From IMG/VR virus record IMGVR_UViG_2651869695_000012: a DNA stretch of 38,818 nucleotides; one strand, given 5' to 3'. This stretch comes from a virus (taxonomy: Duplodnaviria; Heunggongvirae; Uroviricota; Caudoviricetes). This document shows positions 21,427 to 38,818 of this stretch, piece after piece (within the stretch, counting starts at the first letter, position 1; every line of letters begins with the position of its first letter). Below the pieces are notes generated by a model, which searched no databases, had not been told where the DNA came from, and worked only from the letters and a program-made list of their open reading frames with translations. Made by a program: the position numbers and the translations under genes.

Positions 21427-22479
21427 TTATTTCCCCACCAGCTCGTTTATCTCTTTCACTGTCTGGTTAAACCGCTCTGACTCAAGCTCAACACCTAAGG
21501 CCCGACGCCCCAGCGCCATTGCTGCTTTTATTGTGGAACCGGATCCCATAAAAAAATCAGCAACCAGATCACCAGGTCGACTACTGGCATTGATTATTTG
21601 CCGGAGCATATCCGCAGGTTTCTCACACGGATGTTTACCCGGGTAGAACTGAACGGGTTTATGCATCCAGACATCGGTATAAGGCACGGAGACTGATACG
21701 GAGAAATAGCGCCGGAGAGATTTAAACTCATCCAGCAATTCAGAATATTTGCGATTCAGTGAATCATAAGATGCCACCAGCTGGTGGTGTGGTTGTTCCA
21801 GTTGTTGTTCCTGAAACTTCTCTGCCGCTATACGGGAAAACAGTGCCTGTAACTTCCGATAGTCAGCCTCATTCGGCAACTGCCACTGACTGGCACCAAA
21901 CCAGTGGGAAACCATATTTTTCTTACCTGTGGCTTCGGCAATTTGTTTTGCCGTTATACCCAGTTCGGCACGAGCATCCCTGAAATACGAAATCAGCGGT
22001 GCCATTATGTGCTGTTTGAGTTCCCTTTCTTTTGCCGCATAGCCGTCACTTTTGCCGCGATATGGCCCCTGGTAATGTTCAGCAAACAGAACGCGCTCTG
22101 TGGCTGGAAAATATGCACGCAGACTTTCTTTATTACACCCATTCCAACGTCCGGACGGCTTCGCCCAGATGATATGGTTAAGCACGTTGAAACGTTCACG
22201 CATCATGATCTCAATATCAGATGCCAGGCGATGCCCACAGAACAGGTAAAGGCTTCCGGCAGGTTTTAACACCCGCCAGAACTGGGCCAGACAGTGGTCC
22301 AGCCACTTAAGGTAATCTTCGTCCCCTTTCCACTGATTGTCCCAGCCGTTGGGTTTCACCTTGAAGTACGGCGGATCGGTAACAATCAGGTCAATGGAAT
22401 CATCAGGCAGGGACTGAATAAAATGCAGGCAATCAGCGTTGATTAAATCAACACTGTTTATTTTTACAGTATTTTTCAT
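21427..22479 (-). CDS. Orphan DNA methyltransferase (beta-class N6-adenine or N4-cytosine)
   Basis: 350 aa; motif IV LIVTDPPYF near the N-terminus and motif I FxGxG (DFFMGSGSTIKAA) near the C-terminus; no adjacent restriction endonuclease ORF. Confidence 0.85.
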   Translation of the reverse strand: MKNTVKINSVDLINADCLHFIQSLPDDSIDLIVTDPPYFKVKPNGWDNQWKGDEDYLKWLDHCLAQFWRVLKPAGSLYLFCGHRLASDIEIMMRERFNVLNHIIWAKPSGRWNGCNKESLRAYFPATERVLFAEHYQGPYRGKSDGYAAKERELKQHIMAPLISYFRDARAELGITAKQIAEATGKKNMVSHWFGASQWQLPNEADYRKLQALFSRIAAEKFQEQQLEQPHHQLVASYDSLNRKYSELLDEFKSLRRYFSVSVSVPYTDVWMHKPVQFYPGKHPCEKPADMLRQIINASSRPGDLVADFFMGSGSTIKAAMALGRRALGVELESERFNQTVKEINELVGK

Positions 22480-22629
22480 GGATCAGTAAGCGTAACTCTG
22501 GTAGGCTCACTCTGCTTTTGCGCTAAAGCAGTGGGCCGTGGTTCGCTTGTGACCAGTAAGCATGAGCGAATGGCTGGCAGGTGCTACCAACACCCACCAG
22601 CCGCCCATTTTCACAGCAGGAAACCGCCA

Positions 22630-22857
22630 TTACTGGCAGCGTCTGAATTTATTCCCGTACCCGCCGTTATCCTTCGCCAGACCCGCCAGAACTAACTGAG
22701 TCAGTATTAACTGGCACCGGGCTTCGCTTACTCCGGTAGTTCTCGTCATCATGCGTGGCGTTACCCACTTGTCAGCAGGTAAGAAATGAAGGACTGCGGC
22801 GGCGGTTTCTGTCATATCTTGCTGTTTTAGCATGTCTTTTTCCCTTCTGGTTAACAT
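22630..22857 (-). CDS. Small hypothetical protein with possible HTH, upstream of the methyltransferase
   Basis: 75-aa ORF with several candidate ATG starts (22857, 22833, 22815); helix-turn-helix-like VTPRMMTRTTGVSEARCQLILTQL; weak RBS. Confidence 0.3.
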   Translation of the reverse strand: MLTRREKDMLKQQDMTETAAAVLHFLPADKWVTPRMMTRTTGVSEARCQLILTQLVLAGLAKDNGGYGNKFRRCQ

Positions 22858-23103
22858 GACATACCAATAACTCTTGTCTAAAAAGCCAGCAAGATAAAAA
22901 GTCAGTATTCACGACCACCAGCGTGTTTACTGTACTGCACCAGGTTTACAGGTACAAAAAAACCGCTCAGCGGCGGGTTTAAGTTGTGTGGCGAAGTAAC
23001 CACTCTTAACAGCATATTTGATTTTTTACGATTGTAAACGGTTGATTATTCATCTCCAATAAAAATAATTGTGTGGGTATGCCCTTAACAATGGATAAGA
23101 AAC

Positions 23104-23550
23104 ATGAATAAAATGACTGTACTATTACTTAGCGCAACTATCATTTCAGGTTGTACTTCTTCCGTACCATTGATAAAGAAAACTCAATCAGGAAAACCTG
23201 AGGGGGTTTATCAAAATACGACAAAAGATAAAGTCAAAGATGCCCTTGTGAATTACTGCAATAGTAGAGGGTTGATAATTTACAACGCGGATAACAGCAG
23301 TGTTATATGTGGTAAAGAACTGGAAGGCGGCTCTGCTGTTTTTGGACAAATGTTAATCGGCAATGCCTATTCAACAACCCCGGTATCAAAAGTCAGATTT
23401 ACTATCGCTCAAGTTAATAACGATACAAAAGTGTGGGCCGATATGTGGATGGAAACTCAAATGGCAATGGGGCAAGTACAACAAATGTCTATAACAGACA
23501 ACGCAAGCAAAAACACTATCCAACAACGTCTTGATGAATTAAAACCTTAA
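23104..23550 (+). CDS. Lipoprotein moron, antisense to the late operon
   Basis: 148 aa; signal peptide with lipobox (IISGC); AT-rich island between Q and the methyltransferase; own RBS and start on the plus strand. Confidence 0.6.
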   Translation: MNKMTVLLLSATIISGCTSSVPLIKKTQSGKPEGVYQNTTKDKVKDALVNYCNSRGLIIYNADNSSVICGKELEGGSAVFGQMLIGNAYSTTPVSKVRFTIAQVNNDTKVWADMWMETQMAMGQVQQMSITDNASKNTIQQRLDELKP

Positions 23551-23588
23551 ATAAATTAAATAAAATGGGGAGAATAAATCGACTCCCC
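23546..23588 (-). terminator. Intrinsic terminator just downstream of Q (tR'-like) and just past the convergent lipoprotein gene
   Basis: Minus-strand read GGGGAG-(10 nt loop)-CUCCCC followed by AUUUUAUUUAAUUUAUUU; ~40 nt after the Q stop. Confidence 0.55.
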
Positions 23589-23630
23589 ACACATTAAACT
23601 GATTCAATTACCCCCTCAATAAGAGGTCTT

Positions 23631-24011
23631 CTAACGATCCATCTCTAGCTCAATTTCTAACATCATTAACATGCCATCAACTACACCTTCAGCCTTTTGC
23701 AATAAACGCCCAACCCAGCAATCAGAACGCCCATGTTTACGGGCAAGCGCCATAAAAGTCATACCACCTACATAATAATCCACTAATAAATCGTGCAAAT
23801 CGCTGTTGTTCTTTTTCAGGCGAGCCATGCATCCACAAATGATCATCGCGTCATCGTCACAACATTGCGGGCGGGATTTTACTTTTGAAGGGATTAGTCC
23901 TTTAAATCCTGCAGCAATAGACGACCAGGTGACATCCTCGTGATTATTTGCCACCCATGCCCCCCAACGTTCAAGAACCATTTGAATATCACGCATCAAC
24001 TTTCTCCACAA
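23631..24011 (-). CDS. Late-gene antiterminator Q (small, DLP12 quuD-like)
   Basis: 126 aa; Cys cluster [17 protein letters not shown] suggests a zinc site; position immediately upstream of the terminator and lysis cassette. Confidence 0.7.
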
Positions 24012-28511: not shown

Positions 28512-28732
28512 GCAGCACCTCCGAGATGCTTCATGTTTTTTCCGGAGCGAAAGGCTATAAGCGGCATACTGACGCGGTAATTACGGCCCAGCGGTTCACA
28601 AATCACCTTCTGACATTCACGGTCAACCAGGCTAACACGTAGAACATGCCCTGCAGGTGTGGTGTACCACTGACCCGGACGAGGACAACGGAAAGTCTGA
28701 TTGGTAAACCGTTTGAAAATATTCCGGATCAT
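28508..28732 (-). CDS. Small hypothetical phage protein
   Basis: 74-aa ORF with start overlapping the upstream stop (ATGA) and stop overlapping the replication gene start; no family recognised. Confidence 0.4.
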   Translation of the reverse strand: MIRNIFKRFTNQTFRCPRPGQWYTTPAGHVLRVSLVDRECQKVICEPLGRNYRVSMPLIAFRSGKNMKHLGGAA

Positions 28733-29889
28733 TTGCGCCCCCTTACCTCTGAAGGGTTCAGCGACAAATTTATGAGGCAGGCCAGCGCCGAAGCATCATT
28801 AATATAATCATATAAGCTAACAGCCAGCGGAGATTCAGCTTTTGCCAACATAGGATAAAGCTGCTGCAGCCAGACCTTGTGGATTACCGACAGGTGGGAG
28901 TAAAGCACGCTGGCGTTATCTGCGGCATCGCTCAGCGTGGATGGCTTTGAAAGCAGTTTTTCCATCTGGTTAAAGGCATTGATGTATGCCTCTTTGAACC
29001 GGGCAGCACGTTTACCCGTGAAACCCATAGCAAGAAACGCAAAACCGTCTCGTGTGATTTGATAGCAAGGGAGCTTGCGTGTACCACCGTTCGGTTGATT
29101 TACCGAAATCGATGTCTCCGCAAAATTGCGGGCACAAAACTCAGGGGAACAATCCAGAGTGCGGATCTTTTTCAGCACATCGTCGTGACGCTTGGAGAAG
29201 AAGTTGGCAACAGCCAAAGAAGTGGTAACGGCCTGGCCGTTGTCAATGGTGATTTCAGGTTGAGTGAGGGCTTGGATCGTAGCCATGATGGCAGCCTCCG
29301 TTGACAGTGAAAAACTTCCACCACCGGAAACGCCAATTTCACTGGTGGTGAACTGGACGGGGTTGGCGTAACCGGCGTCAACGGAGACCGGCGCACCTTT
29401 CGGTGCCCCCGCCCAGCCCACCATAATCTGGATGTGAGCAAATGCGGACGATAAAAAAGACGCTGGCGCGTCATACATCGCCGTTGACAATTTCAGGACG
29501 CCAATCCCGGCACCCGCTTTATAAGGTGCCTGAACAGTGTAACGTCCCGGAATTGCAGAATCAATATGCTGGTGGTCCTTCACACTCAACAAAATCACGC
29601 CTGAATTTCCACAAAGGACTAAAGCACTCATGCGGGTAGTCTTTGCGAAGATAGATAACGCGCTGTGTTTCTGGCTCCCAACGAATAACATGAACATAAA
29701 GTCCTCTTCCGTCACGAAACCAGCGGTTAAGTTCCTGCACAACTCGCCCCCCACAGTCAGGTAAAGTTCTCTGTGGTTACTTACAGCCAGGTGATTTGGT
29801 AATCTGCATTCATGCCGTAACAACAGGTGTGCAGCGACACTGACCACCAGCTGTTGCGACAAACGGTTATTTGCCGTTAAACTGTTCAT
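28729..29889 (-). CDS. Protein with C-terminal Rha-like phage regulatory domain; possible internal start at 29286
   Basis: 386-aa ORF whose ATG at 29889 overlaps the CII-like stop (ATGA); C-terminal half carries a Rha-like segment (VTTSLAVANFFSKRHDDVLKKIRTLD); strong GGAGG RBS precedes internal ATG 29286. Confidence 0.5.
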   Translation of the reverse strand: MNSLTANNRLSQQLVVSVAAHLLLRHECRLPNHLAVSNHRELYLTVGGELCRNLTAGFVTEEDFMFMLFVGSQKHSALSIFAKTTRMSALVLCGNSGVILLSVKDHQHIDSAIPGRYTVQAPYKAGAGIGVLKLSTAMYDAPASFLSSAFAHIQIMVGWAGAPKGAPVSVDAGYANPVQFTTSEIGVSGGGSFSLSTEAAIMATIQALTQPEITIDNGQAVTTSLAVANFFSKRHDDVLKKIRTLDCSPEFCARNFAETSISVNQPNGGTRKLPCYQITRDGFAFLAMGFTGKRAARFKEAYINAFNQMEKLLSKPSTLSDAADNASVLYSHLSVIHKVWLQQLYPMLAKAESPLAVSLYDYINDASALACLINLSLNPSEVRGRK

Positions 29890-30787: not shown

Positions 30788-31480
30788 ATGAACATAGGAA
30801 ATCGAGTCAGACAACTTCGCCAGGCGAAGAACATGAAAATCGCCGATCTCGCTGAAGCAATAGGAGTGGATGCGGCGAATATCTCGCGCCTCGAAACAGG
30901 TAAGCAGAAACAATTCACTGAACAAGCCCTGAGTAATATTGCCAGGAGCTTAGGTGTTGATATTGCTGATCTCTTTACCTCAGACCTCAAAAGTAATACT
31001 GTATGTAAAAACAGTATTAGTGAGGATGTTGCGCAGGTGAAGGATGTATTCCGTATTGAAATGCTGGATGTCAGTGCCAGTGCGGGAAATGGCCTTATCC
31101 AGGGCGGTGATGTCATTGATGTGATTCATGCCATTGAATACAGAACTGATAATGCTGTATCGATGTTTGGTGGACGACCAGCAAATCACATTAAAGTTAT
31201 CAACGTTCGTGGGGACAGTATGTGTCCAACCATTGAGCCAGGAGATCTCATCTTCGTTGATATCAGTATCAATCAGTTTGATGGGGATGGTATATATGTA
31301 TTTGGTTTTGATGATAAAATTTACGTCAAACGACTGCAAATGATACCTGATAAACTGCTGGTAATTTCTGATAATCAGATTTACCGCGAATGGGGAATTA
31401 CCAGCGAAAACGAACATCGGTTTATGGTCTTTGGAAAGGTCTTAATCAGTCAGTCACAAACCCTTAAGCGACACAATTAA
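30788..31480 (+). CDS. CI-like repressor: N-terminal XRE HTH plus C-terminal S24 (LexA-like) autopeptidase
   Basis: 230 aa; HTH VRQLRQAKNMKIADLAEAIGVDAANISRLE; Ala-Gly cleavage site (SASAGNG); Ser nucleophile in GDSM and Lys in VKRL. Confidence 0.9.
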   Translation: MNIGNRVRQLRQAKNMKIADLAEAIGVDAANISRLETGKQKQFTEQALSNIARSLGVDIADLFTSDLKSNTVCKNSISEDVAQVKDVFRIEMLDVSASAGNGLIQGGDVIDVIHAIEYRTDNAVSMFGGRPANHIKVINVRGDSMCPTIEPGDLIFVDISINQFDGDGIYVFGFDDKIYVKRLQMIPDKLLVISDNQIYREWGITSENEHRFMVFGKVLISQSQTLKRHN

Positions 31481-35831: not shown

Positions 35832-37427
35832 ATGGCTGAAGCAGCAAAAAAAAACCCACAAAAGCTGAATGAAAAAAAAGGCTCAACATCGGCATCATCA
35901 CTTGATATTGTGAATTCACGACAATCAAAGGATATTTATCTTGGATTGTGTGGATATGTTGGATGTGGCATGAGAACGATAAACAAAATTATCGAAGAGA
36001 TATCCAAAGAATGGGGGTATAATGTTGTACACATCCGCATAAGTGCGCTTATGGAAAACCCATTATATTTTGAGCCAGCAGCACTGAAGGTATCCGAAAG
36101 CACACAAGTTAATAGACATTTAAAACTCCAGGATATTGCCAATAAACTTCGTAAACATTACAAAAAAAATGAGTTGCTTGCAGAAGCTGCTATTGCAGCA
36201 ATCGCAGCAGAGAAAAATAATATTGTTTATAATAATGATGAATATAAAGGTACTGTCTTCATCATTGATCAATTCAAAAGGCCGGAAGAAATAGAGTTAT
36301 TCAGAGTTATATATCAGCATAATTTCTATTTGTTAGGAGTTTTGCGCGATTTAGATTACCGAATTCAGAATCTCATTGATGACGAATCGACAAAGAACGA
36401 TCTTCATTTAATTATCAATATTGATAATAAATCCTCTGATCCGTATGGACAAAGAACCGGGGAAACCATTCTTGATTCAGATTTTTTTATTAAAAATAAC
36501 TTCAGCCAAAAAAGTGAATTAAAGAAGAAGATTGATCGGTTTTTCGGTCTTATTCATGGCAAAAATGGTTTAACACCAACTTTTAACGAGAAAGGTATGT
36601 ATGCTGCCTTTTCAACATCATTACAATCAGCTTGTTTATCACGTCAAGTAGGGGCTGCACTGTTTGATGATGAAGGGAATTTGCTTGCCGTGGGTAAGAA
36701 CGACGTACCTAAAGCTGGTGGCGGGTTGTATAGCAGTGATGATTTTGATAACGATCATCGATGCGTTCACAAAAGTGGTAAGTGTTATAATGATGCAAAC
36801 AAGCTAAAAATTAAAGACCGTATAAAAAGCATATTATCAACCGAAGTAAGAACTGTATTAGGTATTTCCGCAGGACAAACTGTTGCCGATATTAATATAA
36901 CACGACTTCTAAACAAATTAGATAATATTGCAGAAGGCATTTACAAAGACAGCAAAATATCAAGTGTAATGGAATACTCCAGATCAATTCATGCTGAAAT
37001 GGACGTCATTACATCAATGGCTAGAAAACAAAACGGCGATACTAAAGATAAAATTCTTTTTACGACAACCTATCCCTGCCACAACTGTGCAAGGCATATT
37101 GTCGCAGCTGGAATAAAAAAAGTAGTATATATAGAGCCATTTGATAAAAGCCTTGCTCTTGATCTGCATAATGATGCAATAACAAAGAACGAAGAATCTT
37201 CCAAAGTAATATTTTGTGATTTTGAGGGGGTATCACCCCGCCGCTACCATAAATTTTTCAGACCAACGGATGAACGTAAAGATGATAAAACAGGGGCTGC
37301 AAATAAATTTAATGCTCGCTACGAAAATCATATAGATGTTCAATATCTTGATGATTATAGAAAGTATGAGACTGTTGTAGCTAAGAAATTTATAAACGAG
37401 ATTGCTAAACCAGAGTCTCAGCCATAA
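35832..37427 (+). CDS. Two-domain P-loop-like NTPase + zinc dCMP/cytidine deaminase protein; candidate AvcD/DCD-type nucleotide-depletion anti-phage protein
   Basis: 531 aa; N-terminal Gly-rich loop LGLCGYVGCGMRT; C-terminal deaminase signature: CLSRQVGAALF, zinc ligands HAE (SIHAEMDV) and PCxxC (TYPCHNCARH); AT-rich; terminator hairpin directly downstream. Confidence 0.75.
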   Translation: MAEAAKKNPQKLNEKKGSTSASSLDIVNSRQSKDIYLGLCGYVGCGMRTINKIIEEISKEWGYNVVHIRISALMENPLYFEPAALKVSESTQVNRHLKLQDIANKLRKHYKKNELLAEAAIAAIAAEKNNIVYNNDEYKGTVFIIDQFKRPEEIELFRVIYQHNFYLLGVLRDLDYRIQNLIDDESTKNDLHLIINIDNKSSDPYGQRTGETILDSDFFIKNNFSQKSELKKKIDRFFGLIHGKNGLTPTFNEKGMYAAFSTSLQSACLSRQVGAALFDDEGNLLAVGKNDVPKAGGGLYSSDDFDNDHRCVHKSGKCYNDANKLKIKDRIKSILSTEVRTVLGISAGQTVADINITRLLNKLDNIAEGIYKDSKISSVMEYSRSIHAEMDVITSMARKQNGDTKDKILFTTTYPCHNCARHIVAAGIKKVVYIEPFDKSLALDLHNDAITKNEESSKVIFCDFEGVSPRRYHKFFRPTDERKDDKTGAANKFNARYENHIDVQYLDDYRKYETVVAKKFINEIAKPESQP

Positions 37428-37579: not shown

Positions 37580-38818
37580 TTATTCAATAGGCTGTCTGTT
37601 GGAACCTAAATTAGTGTAAGTAAGAATCGAATCAACCCTATCCCACCATGCCTGATAGGCTTTACGCTGTTCTTCTAGATAATCGCTCTTATCATAAACT
37701 TGCCATACCCCTGGCAGTTTATGACCGAGCATTATTTCAGCAATATGAGGCGCAGTAAGATCAGAAAAGTTTGTTCGTGCTGTTCGTCTCAAATCATGAA
37801 GAGACCAATGAGGAAATTGATACCCCAAACGCCGCCATGCGTACTGCATTAAATTGTAAGGCAGCGACTGCAATGATGTTCGACCAACTGGCTCCTTGCT
37901 TCCTTCCTTGGTAAAAAGCATATCGGAACCGTTGTTCATAGAGATAACGTATTTTATAAGCTCTTCAACCGGTTCAATAATGGGGCGCTTTAGCGGTTCG
38001 CCTGTTATATCACCTGTCTTATGTCGTTCTGGCGGTACAGTCCATACCTTATTAATGAAATCAAAATCATCCACCCTGGCAGTAATCAGCTCTGAACTAC
38101 GACAGCCGAAATGCAGCAATAGTTTAATGAAGGCCCGGTATTTGGGAACCATTCGAGAACCATCGATCGCAGCATAAAGAATTTTAATTTCATCGTGTGT
38201 CAGAAACCGTTTCTTCTGACCTTTACGGATATCCATATCTTTCCCCGTGATGTCCGACAGCGGGCGAGTTTCAATAAACTTTCTCTTATACGCCCAGACA
38301 TGGGCCTGCTTTGCGTTAATTAGCAATCGGTCTGCTATTGCTGGAGTCTTAGTGCTAAGAGGCTCCAGGACCTCTAACCAATCATGCAATGTAGCTGCAT
38401 CGTGAGGGATACTCCCGATTTTAGAGAACAGATGCAGTTCAAATGAGCGGAGTATCTGCTCAGAACCTTTTTTATTTTTTACACAATATGCTTCATACCA
38501 GGCACGGATCACAGACTCTACCGTCATGGCTTCAGTAGCTTTGCGTTTTTCTGCCTGCCTGACCAATCGTGGATTGCGGTTTGACTCAAGTTCACCACGA
38601 AGACGGATAACTTCTTCTCTGGCCTCTTTTAATCCAGTTGCCGGGTAAGTTCCGATATCAAGTCGCTCGCCTTTCCCTGCCCATTGATAACGATATTGGA
38701 ACACTACGCGACCTTTCGGTGATACTCTGACAGACAGACCATCACGATCTGATTTAACCAAAACCTTATCGCGTTCCTTTCCAACGACTGAACGCAACCA
38801 CGCATCAGACAGCGCCAT
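37580..38818 (-). CDS. int: Tyrosine recombinase / integrase (P4-type with N-terminal arm-binding domain)
   Basis: 412 aa; start ATG at the last three bases of the window; C-terminal catalytic motifs HDLRRT and LGHK...Y; N-terminal MALSDAWLRSV typical of P4-like integrases. Confidence 0.9.
   Translation of the reverse strand: MALSDAWLRSVVGKERDKVLVKSDRDGLSVRVSPKGRVVFQYRYQWAGKGERLDIGTYPATGLKEAREEVIRLRGELESNRNPRLVRQAEKRKATEAMTVESVIRAWYEAYCVKNKKGSEQILRSFELHLFSKIGSIPHDAATLHDWLEVLEPLSTKTPAIADRLLINAKQAHVWAYKRKFIETRPLSDITGKDMDIRKGQKKRFLTHDEIKILYAAIDGSRMVPKYRAFIKLLLHFGCRSSELITARVDDFDFINKVWTVPPERHKTGDITGEPLKRPIIEPVEELIKYVISMNNGSDMLFTKEGSKEPVGRTSLQSLPYNLMQYAWRRLGYQFPHWSLHDLRRTARTNFSDLTAPHIAEIMLGHKLPGVWQVYDKSDYLEEQRKAYQAWWDRVDSILTYTNLGSNRQPIE

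Follow-up and report, generated by a model that had tools for sequence, protein, structure and literature searches.

In the lambdoid prophage represented by the IMG/VR record IMGVR_UViG_2651869695_000012 (38,818 nucleotides, here called the window), a small lipoprotein gene is located at 23104-23550 on the plus strand, next to the gene of the antiterminator Q. The tail, head, terminase, lysis and methylase genes of the late operon as well as Q are all encoded on the minus strand. This raises the question of how such a gene is expressed relative to the late operon and what its product does. A preliminary description made from the sequence had correctly placed the gene opposite to the whole late operon and labeled it a moron, i.e., a phage accessory transcription unit in the sense of Juhala and Hendrix, lying antisense to the Q-antiterminated late transcript and overridden on induction. 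The analysis reported here retains the moron and revises its transcription. The cassette is best read, with a probability of roughly 0.6, as a self-contained moron whose product is exported and lipid-anchored in the envelope. It would be expressed in the lysogen, and it sits between Q and the late promoter pR' in a slot that is used repeatedly for insertions.

The Lipoprotein Gene and Its Product

The gene was defined by the list of open reading frames (ORFs), by a match to phrog_3152 and by its homologues. It encodes 148 amino acids followed by a stop codon, of which approximately 131 residues constitute the mature protein. The precursor starts with ATG and its N-terminus reads MNKMTVLLLSATIISGC followed by TSS. 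A signal peptide with the lipobox I-S-G-C can be read at 23104-23154 (+), in which Cys17 is encoded by 23152-23154. It shows the three parts of a signal peptidase II (SPase II) signal, i.e., the basic n-region MNK, the h-region MTVLLLSATI and the ISGC lipobox, it fits the SPase II pattern [LVI][ASTVI][GAS]C and its cysteine is conserved. The 148-residue lipoprotein with an IISGC lipobox, as originally noticed, is thereby confirmed. The mature protein carries Thr at position +2 and Ser at +3 and has no Asp there. According to the Lol sorting rule, lipoproteins without Asp at +2 are directed to the outer membrane, and the protein is thus predicted to be of the outer-membrane type. The export signal excludes a role in the virion.

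The gene has a GC content of 0.38, compared to 0.52 in its flanks. It forms an AT-rich island, as had been described, with the composition unlike the surrounding phage genome by which morons are recognized. Its stop codon (23548-23550) is separated by an 80-bp spacer from that of Q (23631). Judged from the sequence comparisons, the gene is real and not a chance ORF, because homologues with 30-72% identity exist for which synonymous sites (dS) are saturated while the non-synonymous distance (dN) is 0.2-0.4.

A word-indexed search found 31 relatives down to 50% identity in Escherichia, Shigella, Salmonella, Jejubacter, Citrobacter, Enterobacter, Phytobacter, Xenorhabdus and Morganella; a second search of this type, based on a broad alignment, contributed few further named proteins and brought no annotation. 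In an alignment of 21 homologues, 25 columns do not vary, among them Cys17 and positions of the motifs GNxYS and KVWxDxWxExQM. Cys17, Cys52 and Cys69 are conserved to at least 90% in a sample of 41 sequences that reaches down to about 30% identity, and the lipobox is kept in every divergent homologue. Wherever dS can be measured, omega ranges from 0.07 to 0.2, with 0.07 for Salmonella versus Jejubacter, which indicates that the lipoprotein is under purifying selection; between genera synonymous sites are saturated. The family extends far beyond these relatives. A hidden Markov model (HMM) scan of 1.84 billion representatives of clusters at 50% identity gave 823 matching clusters at E <= 0.001, of which 408 reached E <= 1e-10, although neither Pfam nor NCBIfam has a model of the domain. 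Some members carry C-terminal PDZ, TPR (YfiO-like) or SHOCT domains, which were seen as fusions in the longer bacterial proteins P0106, P0142, P0187, P0115, P0116, P0100 and P0131. Two further long profile hits (P0051 and P0054) have a Cys-rich C-terminal extension for which no Pfam match was found.

The AlphaFold2 model, calculated from a 21-sequence alignment, reached a predicted local distance difference test (pLDDT) of 85 and a predicted template modeling score (pTM) of 0.75. Its secondary-structure elements follow the order beta-alpha-beta-beta-alpha-beta-beta-beta-alpha, and DUF4468 and SRPBCC/Bet v 1 proteins were named alongside the model. The modeled fold appears to resemble lipid- or ligand-binding helix-grip/KA1 modules and the BamC/Flpp3 lipoproteins. 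The match to phrog_3152 is strong (E 3e-104) and this PHROG is annotated as of unknown function. No Pfam match (E <= 0.01) or NCBIfam match (E <= 0.1) was obtained for the lipoprotein, including the Bor/Iss profile PF06291. A sequence profile search of the PDB returned nothing and Foldseek against viral models nothing significant, and PADLOC matched no defense or exclusion family, its only hit being PbeC at noise level (E 0.014, 11.9 bits). A periplasmic binding module is suggested by the conserved cysteine pair and by the PDZ and TPR fusions of distant relatives.

The Late Promoter and the Direction of Transcription

Whether the gene is antisense to late transcription depends on where the late promoter lies. 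The minus-strand stretch 23103-22950 was found by a sensitive DNA search to match the Q-proximal region of the Shiga toxin (Stx) phages H-19B, 933W-type and VT1-Sakai with 80% identity. In VT1-Sakai the matching stretch is annotated with a putative late promoter, a Q-utilization site and a rho-independent terminator acting on the pR' transcript, and in Ss-VASD it is annotated as PR'. By promoter scan and a base-for-base alignment with the VT1-Sakai promoter, pR' of the window is located at 23011-23038 (-), with the -35 element TTTACA (23038-23033), a 16-nt spacer and the -10 element TATGCT (23016-23011). The initial transcribed element TAAGAGTGGTTAC follows at 22996-23008 (-) as a putative pause/qut region known from comparison among phages. 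The window, VT1-Sakai, Ss-VASD and 2G7b share this element without any difference, and it overlaps by 2 nt (TT) the start of the "putative Q-utilization" site of VT1-Sakai (L007, 1243-1250), which is located just downstream. The first terminator after pR' is a hairpin with a T7 run at 22952-22974 (-), recognized by the terminator scan and by homology to VT1-Sakai and to phage Ayreon, in which a terminator is annotated at the homologous hairpin. The independent consensus scan chose the same promoter and the same terminator as the alignment.

The antiterminator itself (23631-24011, -) belongs to PF06530 (Pfam E 2e-51). In BLASTP it is 80% identical to the Q protein of VT1-Sakai (97 of 122 positions) and lacks the C-terminal extension of the latter; pR' as found is therefore of the cognate promoter type. 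A PF06530 Q, homologous -35 and -10 elements, the initial transcribed sequence and the terminator are accordingly all present in the window. In the Stx phages, promoter, initial transcribed region and first hairpin are approximately 80% identical to 23038-22955, but Q overlaps pR' there without an intervening gene and the window diverges from the StxS region past the first hairpin. For Stx phages it was reported that pR' is constitutive and that the terminated transcript becomes StxS (PMC7547250). In the window, 23004-22955 (-) corresponds with about 80% identity to the 5' portion of the sequence from which this small RNA (sRNA) arises, and an Rfam search of 22400-23800 gave no match, including none to an StxS-type family.

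As read from this map, the lipoprotein gene is flanked by Q, with which it is convergent, and by pR', from which it diverges. As pR' is located beyond the 5' end of the gene and fires away from it, RNA polymerase modified by Q never crosses the gene. The proposals that it is antisense to the Q-antiterminated late transcript and that its expression is overridden on induction are hence not borne out, as pR', TAAGAGTGGTTAC and the first terminator (23038-22955) all lead away from it. Only early transcripts that derive from pR and run out of Q could be antisense to the gene. A late promoter within the 80-bp spacer between Q and the lipoprotein gene was considered and rejected, as this spacer contains no promoter-like site and no homology to any pR'.

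Behind pR' and its terminator, a small ORF (22630-22857, -) of phrog_331, a family annotated as of unknown function, and an N6/N4 DNA methyltransferase gene (21427-22479, -) come first, upstream of the holin gene. The methyltransferase matches the PADLOC Type II methyltransferase (MTase) family (E 3e-152), and its gene would thereby be a late gene that depends on Q, as is the case in mEp460, cdtI and Stx2c phages.

The Insertion Slot between Q and pR'

Comparison of Q relatives delimits a variable slot that reaches from the last codons of Q to the -35 element of pR' (23039-23635). In relatives with 82-86% DNA identity in Q, homology to the window ends at the ...EMD codons of Q and it resumes exactly at GTTTAC of the pR' -35 element. 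The gene is absent from this site in close relatives and the slot boundaries are sharp, which together with the foreign GC content, the promoter-like site, the hairpin and the cassettes found elsewhere supports the moron label. The slot is empty in VT1-Sakai, in which Q overlaps pR', and Q of Ss-VASD likewise abuts pR'.

In other phages the slot holds different genes. In 2G7b an OmpD/NmpC-type porin gene is encoded on the opposite strand, with the pR' element downstream of it. The arrangement is the same as in the window, with a closely related PF06530 Q (82% DNA identity) in front and the same pR' core behind; however, the product is a 16-strand porin without sequence kinship to the lipoprotein, and the 3' spacer and terminators are unrelated. 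In Lambda_ev066 the slot contains the lipocalin gene blc, also on the opposite strand. Here, too, an outer-membrane lipoprotein gene is convergent with a related Q in the interval between Q and pR', but Blc is annotated as a lipocalin beta-barrel without sequence similarity, and a further plus-strand gene lies between blc and the pR' core, which is found further downstream. The classical opposite-strand envelope genes of this slot are the porin genes lc of PA-2 and nmpC of DLP12, which like the porin gene of 2G7b stand opposite to Q and the lysis genes. Lysogens express lc as a conversion gene. Literature on lc of PA-2 yielded nothing useful. An opposite-strand envelope gene in the interval between Q and pR' is consequently a known arrangement, and the lipoprotein studied here is a new, uncharacterized occupant. 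The slot can also take a second insertion, as a related contig (L055, IMGVR_UViG_2778261122_000001) carries about 1.8 kb of extra DNA between the hairpin of the cassette and Q.

The Hairpin and the Putative Promoter of the Cassette

A terminator hairpin between the gene and Q had been part of the preliminary description, and the hairpin is indeed present (23566-23589, between the convergent genes). It folds with -11.8 kcal/mol on the plus strand and has a 7-bp stem, GGGGAG(T)/(A)CTCCCC, formed by 23566-23572 and 23583-23589, and a 10-nt loop. What does not hold is its assignment as a canonical terminator of the lipoprotein gene, as the T-tract is on the Q strand. On the minus strand the hairpin is followed by a T-rich tail, ATTTTATTTAATTTATTT (T-tract 23565-23548), and on the plus strand by ACACATTAAAC; in the terminator scan the hairpin is listed for the minus strand alone. 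Judged by standard criteria, it should therefore act on transcripts leaving Q and not on the lipoprotein transcript. Weak termination in the plus direction, giving an antisense RNA to Q, is possible. The stem is invariant in approximately 49 related viral contigs, while the loop and the A/T tract vary. In L055 the match to the window ends directly behind the hairpin, and the hairpin is therefore assigned to the cassette.

A putative sigma-70 promoter of the lipoprotein gene was identified by consensus scan at 23042-23069 (+) with the structure TTGATT-16 nt-AATAAT. It stands back to back with pR', its -35 side being 4 bp from the -35 element of pR', and it is the only promoter-like site upstream of the gene on the plus strand that leaves room for a 5' untranslated region (UTR). 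Neither hexamer varies among about 49 related loci, in contrast to the positions that separate the -10 element from the ribosome-binding site. Overall, the scans returned 8 promoter-like sites, compared to 3.1 expected from shuffling, and 7 terminator-like sites, compared to 1.8. As to an own promoter and terminator, the cassette offers a promoter match in 9 of 12 positions and a hairpin with its T-tract on the other strand, while 15 of 20 divergent homologues have canonical terminators.

Distribution of the Family and Its Preference for Tail-Tip Clusters

Among 5426 complete E. coli genomes, 186 (about 3%) carry the cassette, always on the chromosome. Carriers include UTI89 and an O157:H7 strain with an otherwise different late region, from which it is concluded that Q, the lipoprotein gene and pR' travel together. 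In one draft-genome lineage (L017-L019, at least 104 contigs) the lipobox Cys17 codon is changed from TGT to TGA at the equivalent of 23154, and gene callers report a 126-residue product from an internal TTG for this lineage. Sporadic frameshifted or fused variants exist as well. The TGA allele is absent from all 185 of 185 complete RefSeq genomes and from all 48 scorable of the 50 closely related IMG/VR loci. The idea of a gene in decay was considered and has largely been rejected, as the allele was seen in draft genomes only.

Every divergent homologue that was looked up lies in a prophage or phage contig. Homologues were found between the tail genes K and I in Salmonella, Jejubacter and metagenomes, between the tape-measure gene and M in Citrobacter and others, between the tail chaperone and the tape-measure gene, in the nin region in Phytobacter and in a P1-like element in Enterobacter. 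A scan of IMG/VR gave 76 loci, which were classified by tblastn with reference neighbors. All 50 copies with at least 97% identity are located in the Q slot on the opposite strand, and 22 to 23 of the 25 divergent copies lie inside the H-M-L-K-I-J tail-tip cluster of lambda-like siphophages, co-oriented with it and separated from their neighbors by gaps of only 70-130 bp. The GC content is lower than in the flanks in 19 of 20 divergent copies, and a canonical GC hairpin with a T-run follows within 110 nt downstream in 15 of the 20. Divergent copies are carried by the IMG/VR contigs L077-L100 and by L002, L003, L011, L013, L014 and L021-L023, most with a strong terminator in the middle of the operon. 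By these comparisons the family shows typical moron behavior with a striking preference for the tail-tip module.

Proposed Mechanism and Role

In the reading as a lysogen-expressed moron, the own sigma-70 promoter (23042-23069) would transcribe the gene independently of the prophage repressor, so that the lipoprotein would be made in the lysogen. The precursor would be exported, acylated at Cys17 and sorted by the Lol system to the inner leaflet of the outer membrane, with its compact alpha/beta domain facing the periplasm and the two conserved cysteines likely disulfide-bonded. The hairpin (23566-23589) would end early transcripts after Q, which would shield the lipoprotein gene from antisense transcription and keep early read-through out of the late operon. 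On induction, Q-modified polymerase would leave pR' in the direction away from the gene and thus would not override it. Most probably, the protein would act at the envelope to protect the lysogen, or else the cell under infection.

Several points weigh against this reading or parts of it. The putative promoter is predicted and matches the consensus in only 9 of 12 positions, and on the plus strand the hairpin is not followed by a U-tract, which makes termination of the lipoprotein transcript doubtful. No sequence or close fold kinship to any known exclusion protein or to Bor was detected. The carrier phages have several unrelated C-termini of J (HK225/HK022-like, lambda-like or Stx-siphophage-like), which do not imply a single receptor. 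Searches of the literature by accession, PHROG identifier and phage name returned nothing, including no transcript, protein or phenotype data. Finally, the TGA lineage indicates that the gene is dispensable, though it is generally maintained.

As to the specific role, superinfection exclusion, i.e., blocking the entry of tailed phages at the outer membrane or in the periplasm, is favored by analogy, at odds somewhat short of even. It is favored because outside E. coli the family sits almost always in tail-tip clusters of lambda-like siphophages. The lipoproteins Cor (phi80, N15, HK022), Llp (T5) and Ltp (TP-J34) are small, are encoded beside tail or receptor-binding genes and block the entry of related phages. 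The divergent homologues are similarly embedded among tail-tip genes, but no sequence or fold similarity to Cor, Llp or Ltp is detectable and the receptor cannot be inferred from the J types of the carriers. Ltp of TP-J34 was described as a superinfection-exclusion lipoprotein (PMC3952083). A wider and more tentative proposal, which we consider rather unlikely as a whole, is that with this protein a widespread family of periplasmic or lipoprotein domains, as yet without a name, has been examined for the first time. Its phage branch would form a new class of superinfection-exclusion or entry-blocking lipoproteins, recurrently inserted between tail-tip genes (H/M, M/L, K/I) and relocated to the slot between Q and pR' in E. 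coli.

The tail-tip location can also be explained by a lytic role, in which the protein would, similar to Llp of T5, cover a receptor or a component of the envelope in the late phase of infection, saving progeny from debris or preventing superinfection, with the E. coli copy displaced from the tail operon. The co-oriented divergent loci and their short gaps agree with this, as terminator-resistant polymerase would co-transcribe them. However, the gene of the window lies outside and opposite to the late operon, and most tail-embedded copies have an own strong terminator and low GC content, as do lysogen-expressed morons, which makes a lytic role improbable. To a similar degree we doubt that the protein is a conversion factor for host fitness or virulence, acting in serum resistance like Bor/Iss or altering envelope properties by binding of envelope proteins or lipids. 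For this speak the porin and lipocalin Blc that otherwise occupy the slot, the frequent occurrence in genomes of extraintestinal pathogenic (ExPEC), avian pathogenic (APEC) and Shiga toxin-producing E. coli (STEC) such as UTI89 and O157:H7, the likeness of the modeled fold to ligand-binding modules and BamC/Flpp3, and the distant bacterial relatives fused to PDZ or TPR (YfiO-like) domains. Bor/Iss of lambda is a small prophage lipoprotein that is expressed in the lysogen and whose gene lies close to the lysis region, on the strand opposite to the late genes. The lipoprotein of the window shares the small size, the prophage location and the opposite orientation, but Bor (PF06291) is found at the lambda site after Rz and differs in size and predicted fold. 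Homology to Bor/Iss or any virulence family is missing, and the strong association with tail modules is more typical of entry-related functions.

Two further explanations are very improbable. In lambda, Q is damped by the antisense promoter paQ, and transcription of the lipoprotein gene could similarly run antisense into Q and damp leaky Q expression in the lysogen, for which the convergent orientation across 80 bp and the plus-strand side of the hairpin without U-tract could be taken; but it is the protein that is conserved, most homologues are located far from Q, and the hairpin with its upstream A-tract may still terminate in both directions. Equally slim are the chances that the gene lies inside the late unit and is silenced after induction by collision or antisense pairing with Q-antiterminated transcription: it is opposite to all late genes and downstream of Q, and early transcripts escaping the hairpin would be antisense to it, but the late signals point away from the gene, the spacer holds none of them, and the order of Q, opposite-strand gene and pR' is also that of 2G7b and Lambda_ev066.

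Other Features of the Window

The minus strand of the prophage holds the replication and nin genes, Q and the lysis, head and tail genes, and the integrase gene is located at 37580-38818 (-); an S24/HTH repressor is encoded at 30788-31480 (+). Rfam matches at gathering level were obtained for a C4 antisense RNA (29341-29428, -; 81 bits) and for the Hfq-binding RNA isrK (29453-29529, -; 62 bits). Both fall inside a called ORF of 386 residues for a Rha/Ash protein (28729-29889, -), whose Pfam domains begin only at residue 117, so that its start is probably over-called. The region looks like an immunity module of the isrK-C4-antirepressor type. At the prophage end, adjoining the integrase, a 531-residue protein is encoded (35832-37427, +) that contains a cytidine/dCMP deaminase zinc-binding domain with matches to MafB19- and Bd3614-like deaminases; this is a typical location for accessory or defense genes.

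Biological Significance

The analysis corrects the local map, as the late promoter of the prophage is placed after the lipoprotein gene and not before it. The interval between Q and pR' would accordingly be understood as an insulated docking site for lysogen-expressed envelope genes, i.e., for a porin, a lipocalin or a lipoprotein, and not as a site of transcriptional conflict. The affinity of the family for tail-tip clusters is the more interesting lead, as it gives a concrete and cheaply testable hypothesis of an entry block. If the entry block fails, the lipoprotein gene is an ordinary moron; if it is true, it would add a new exclusion family that is relevant to phage host range and to phage therapy.

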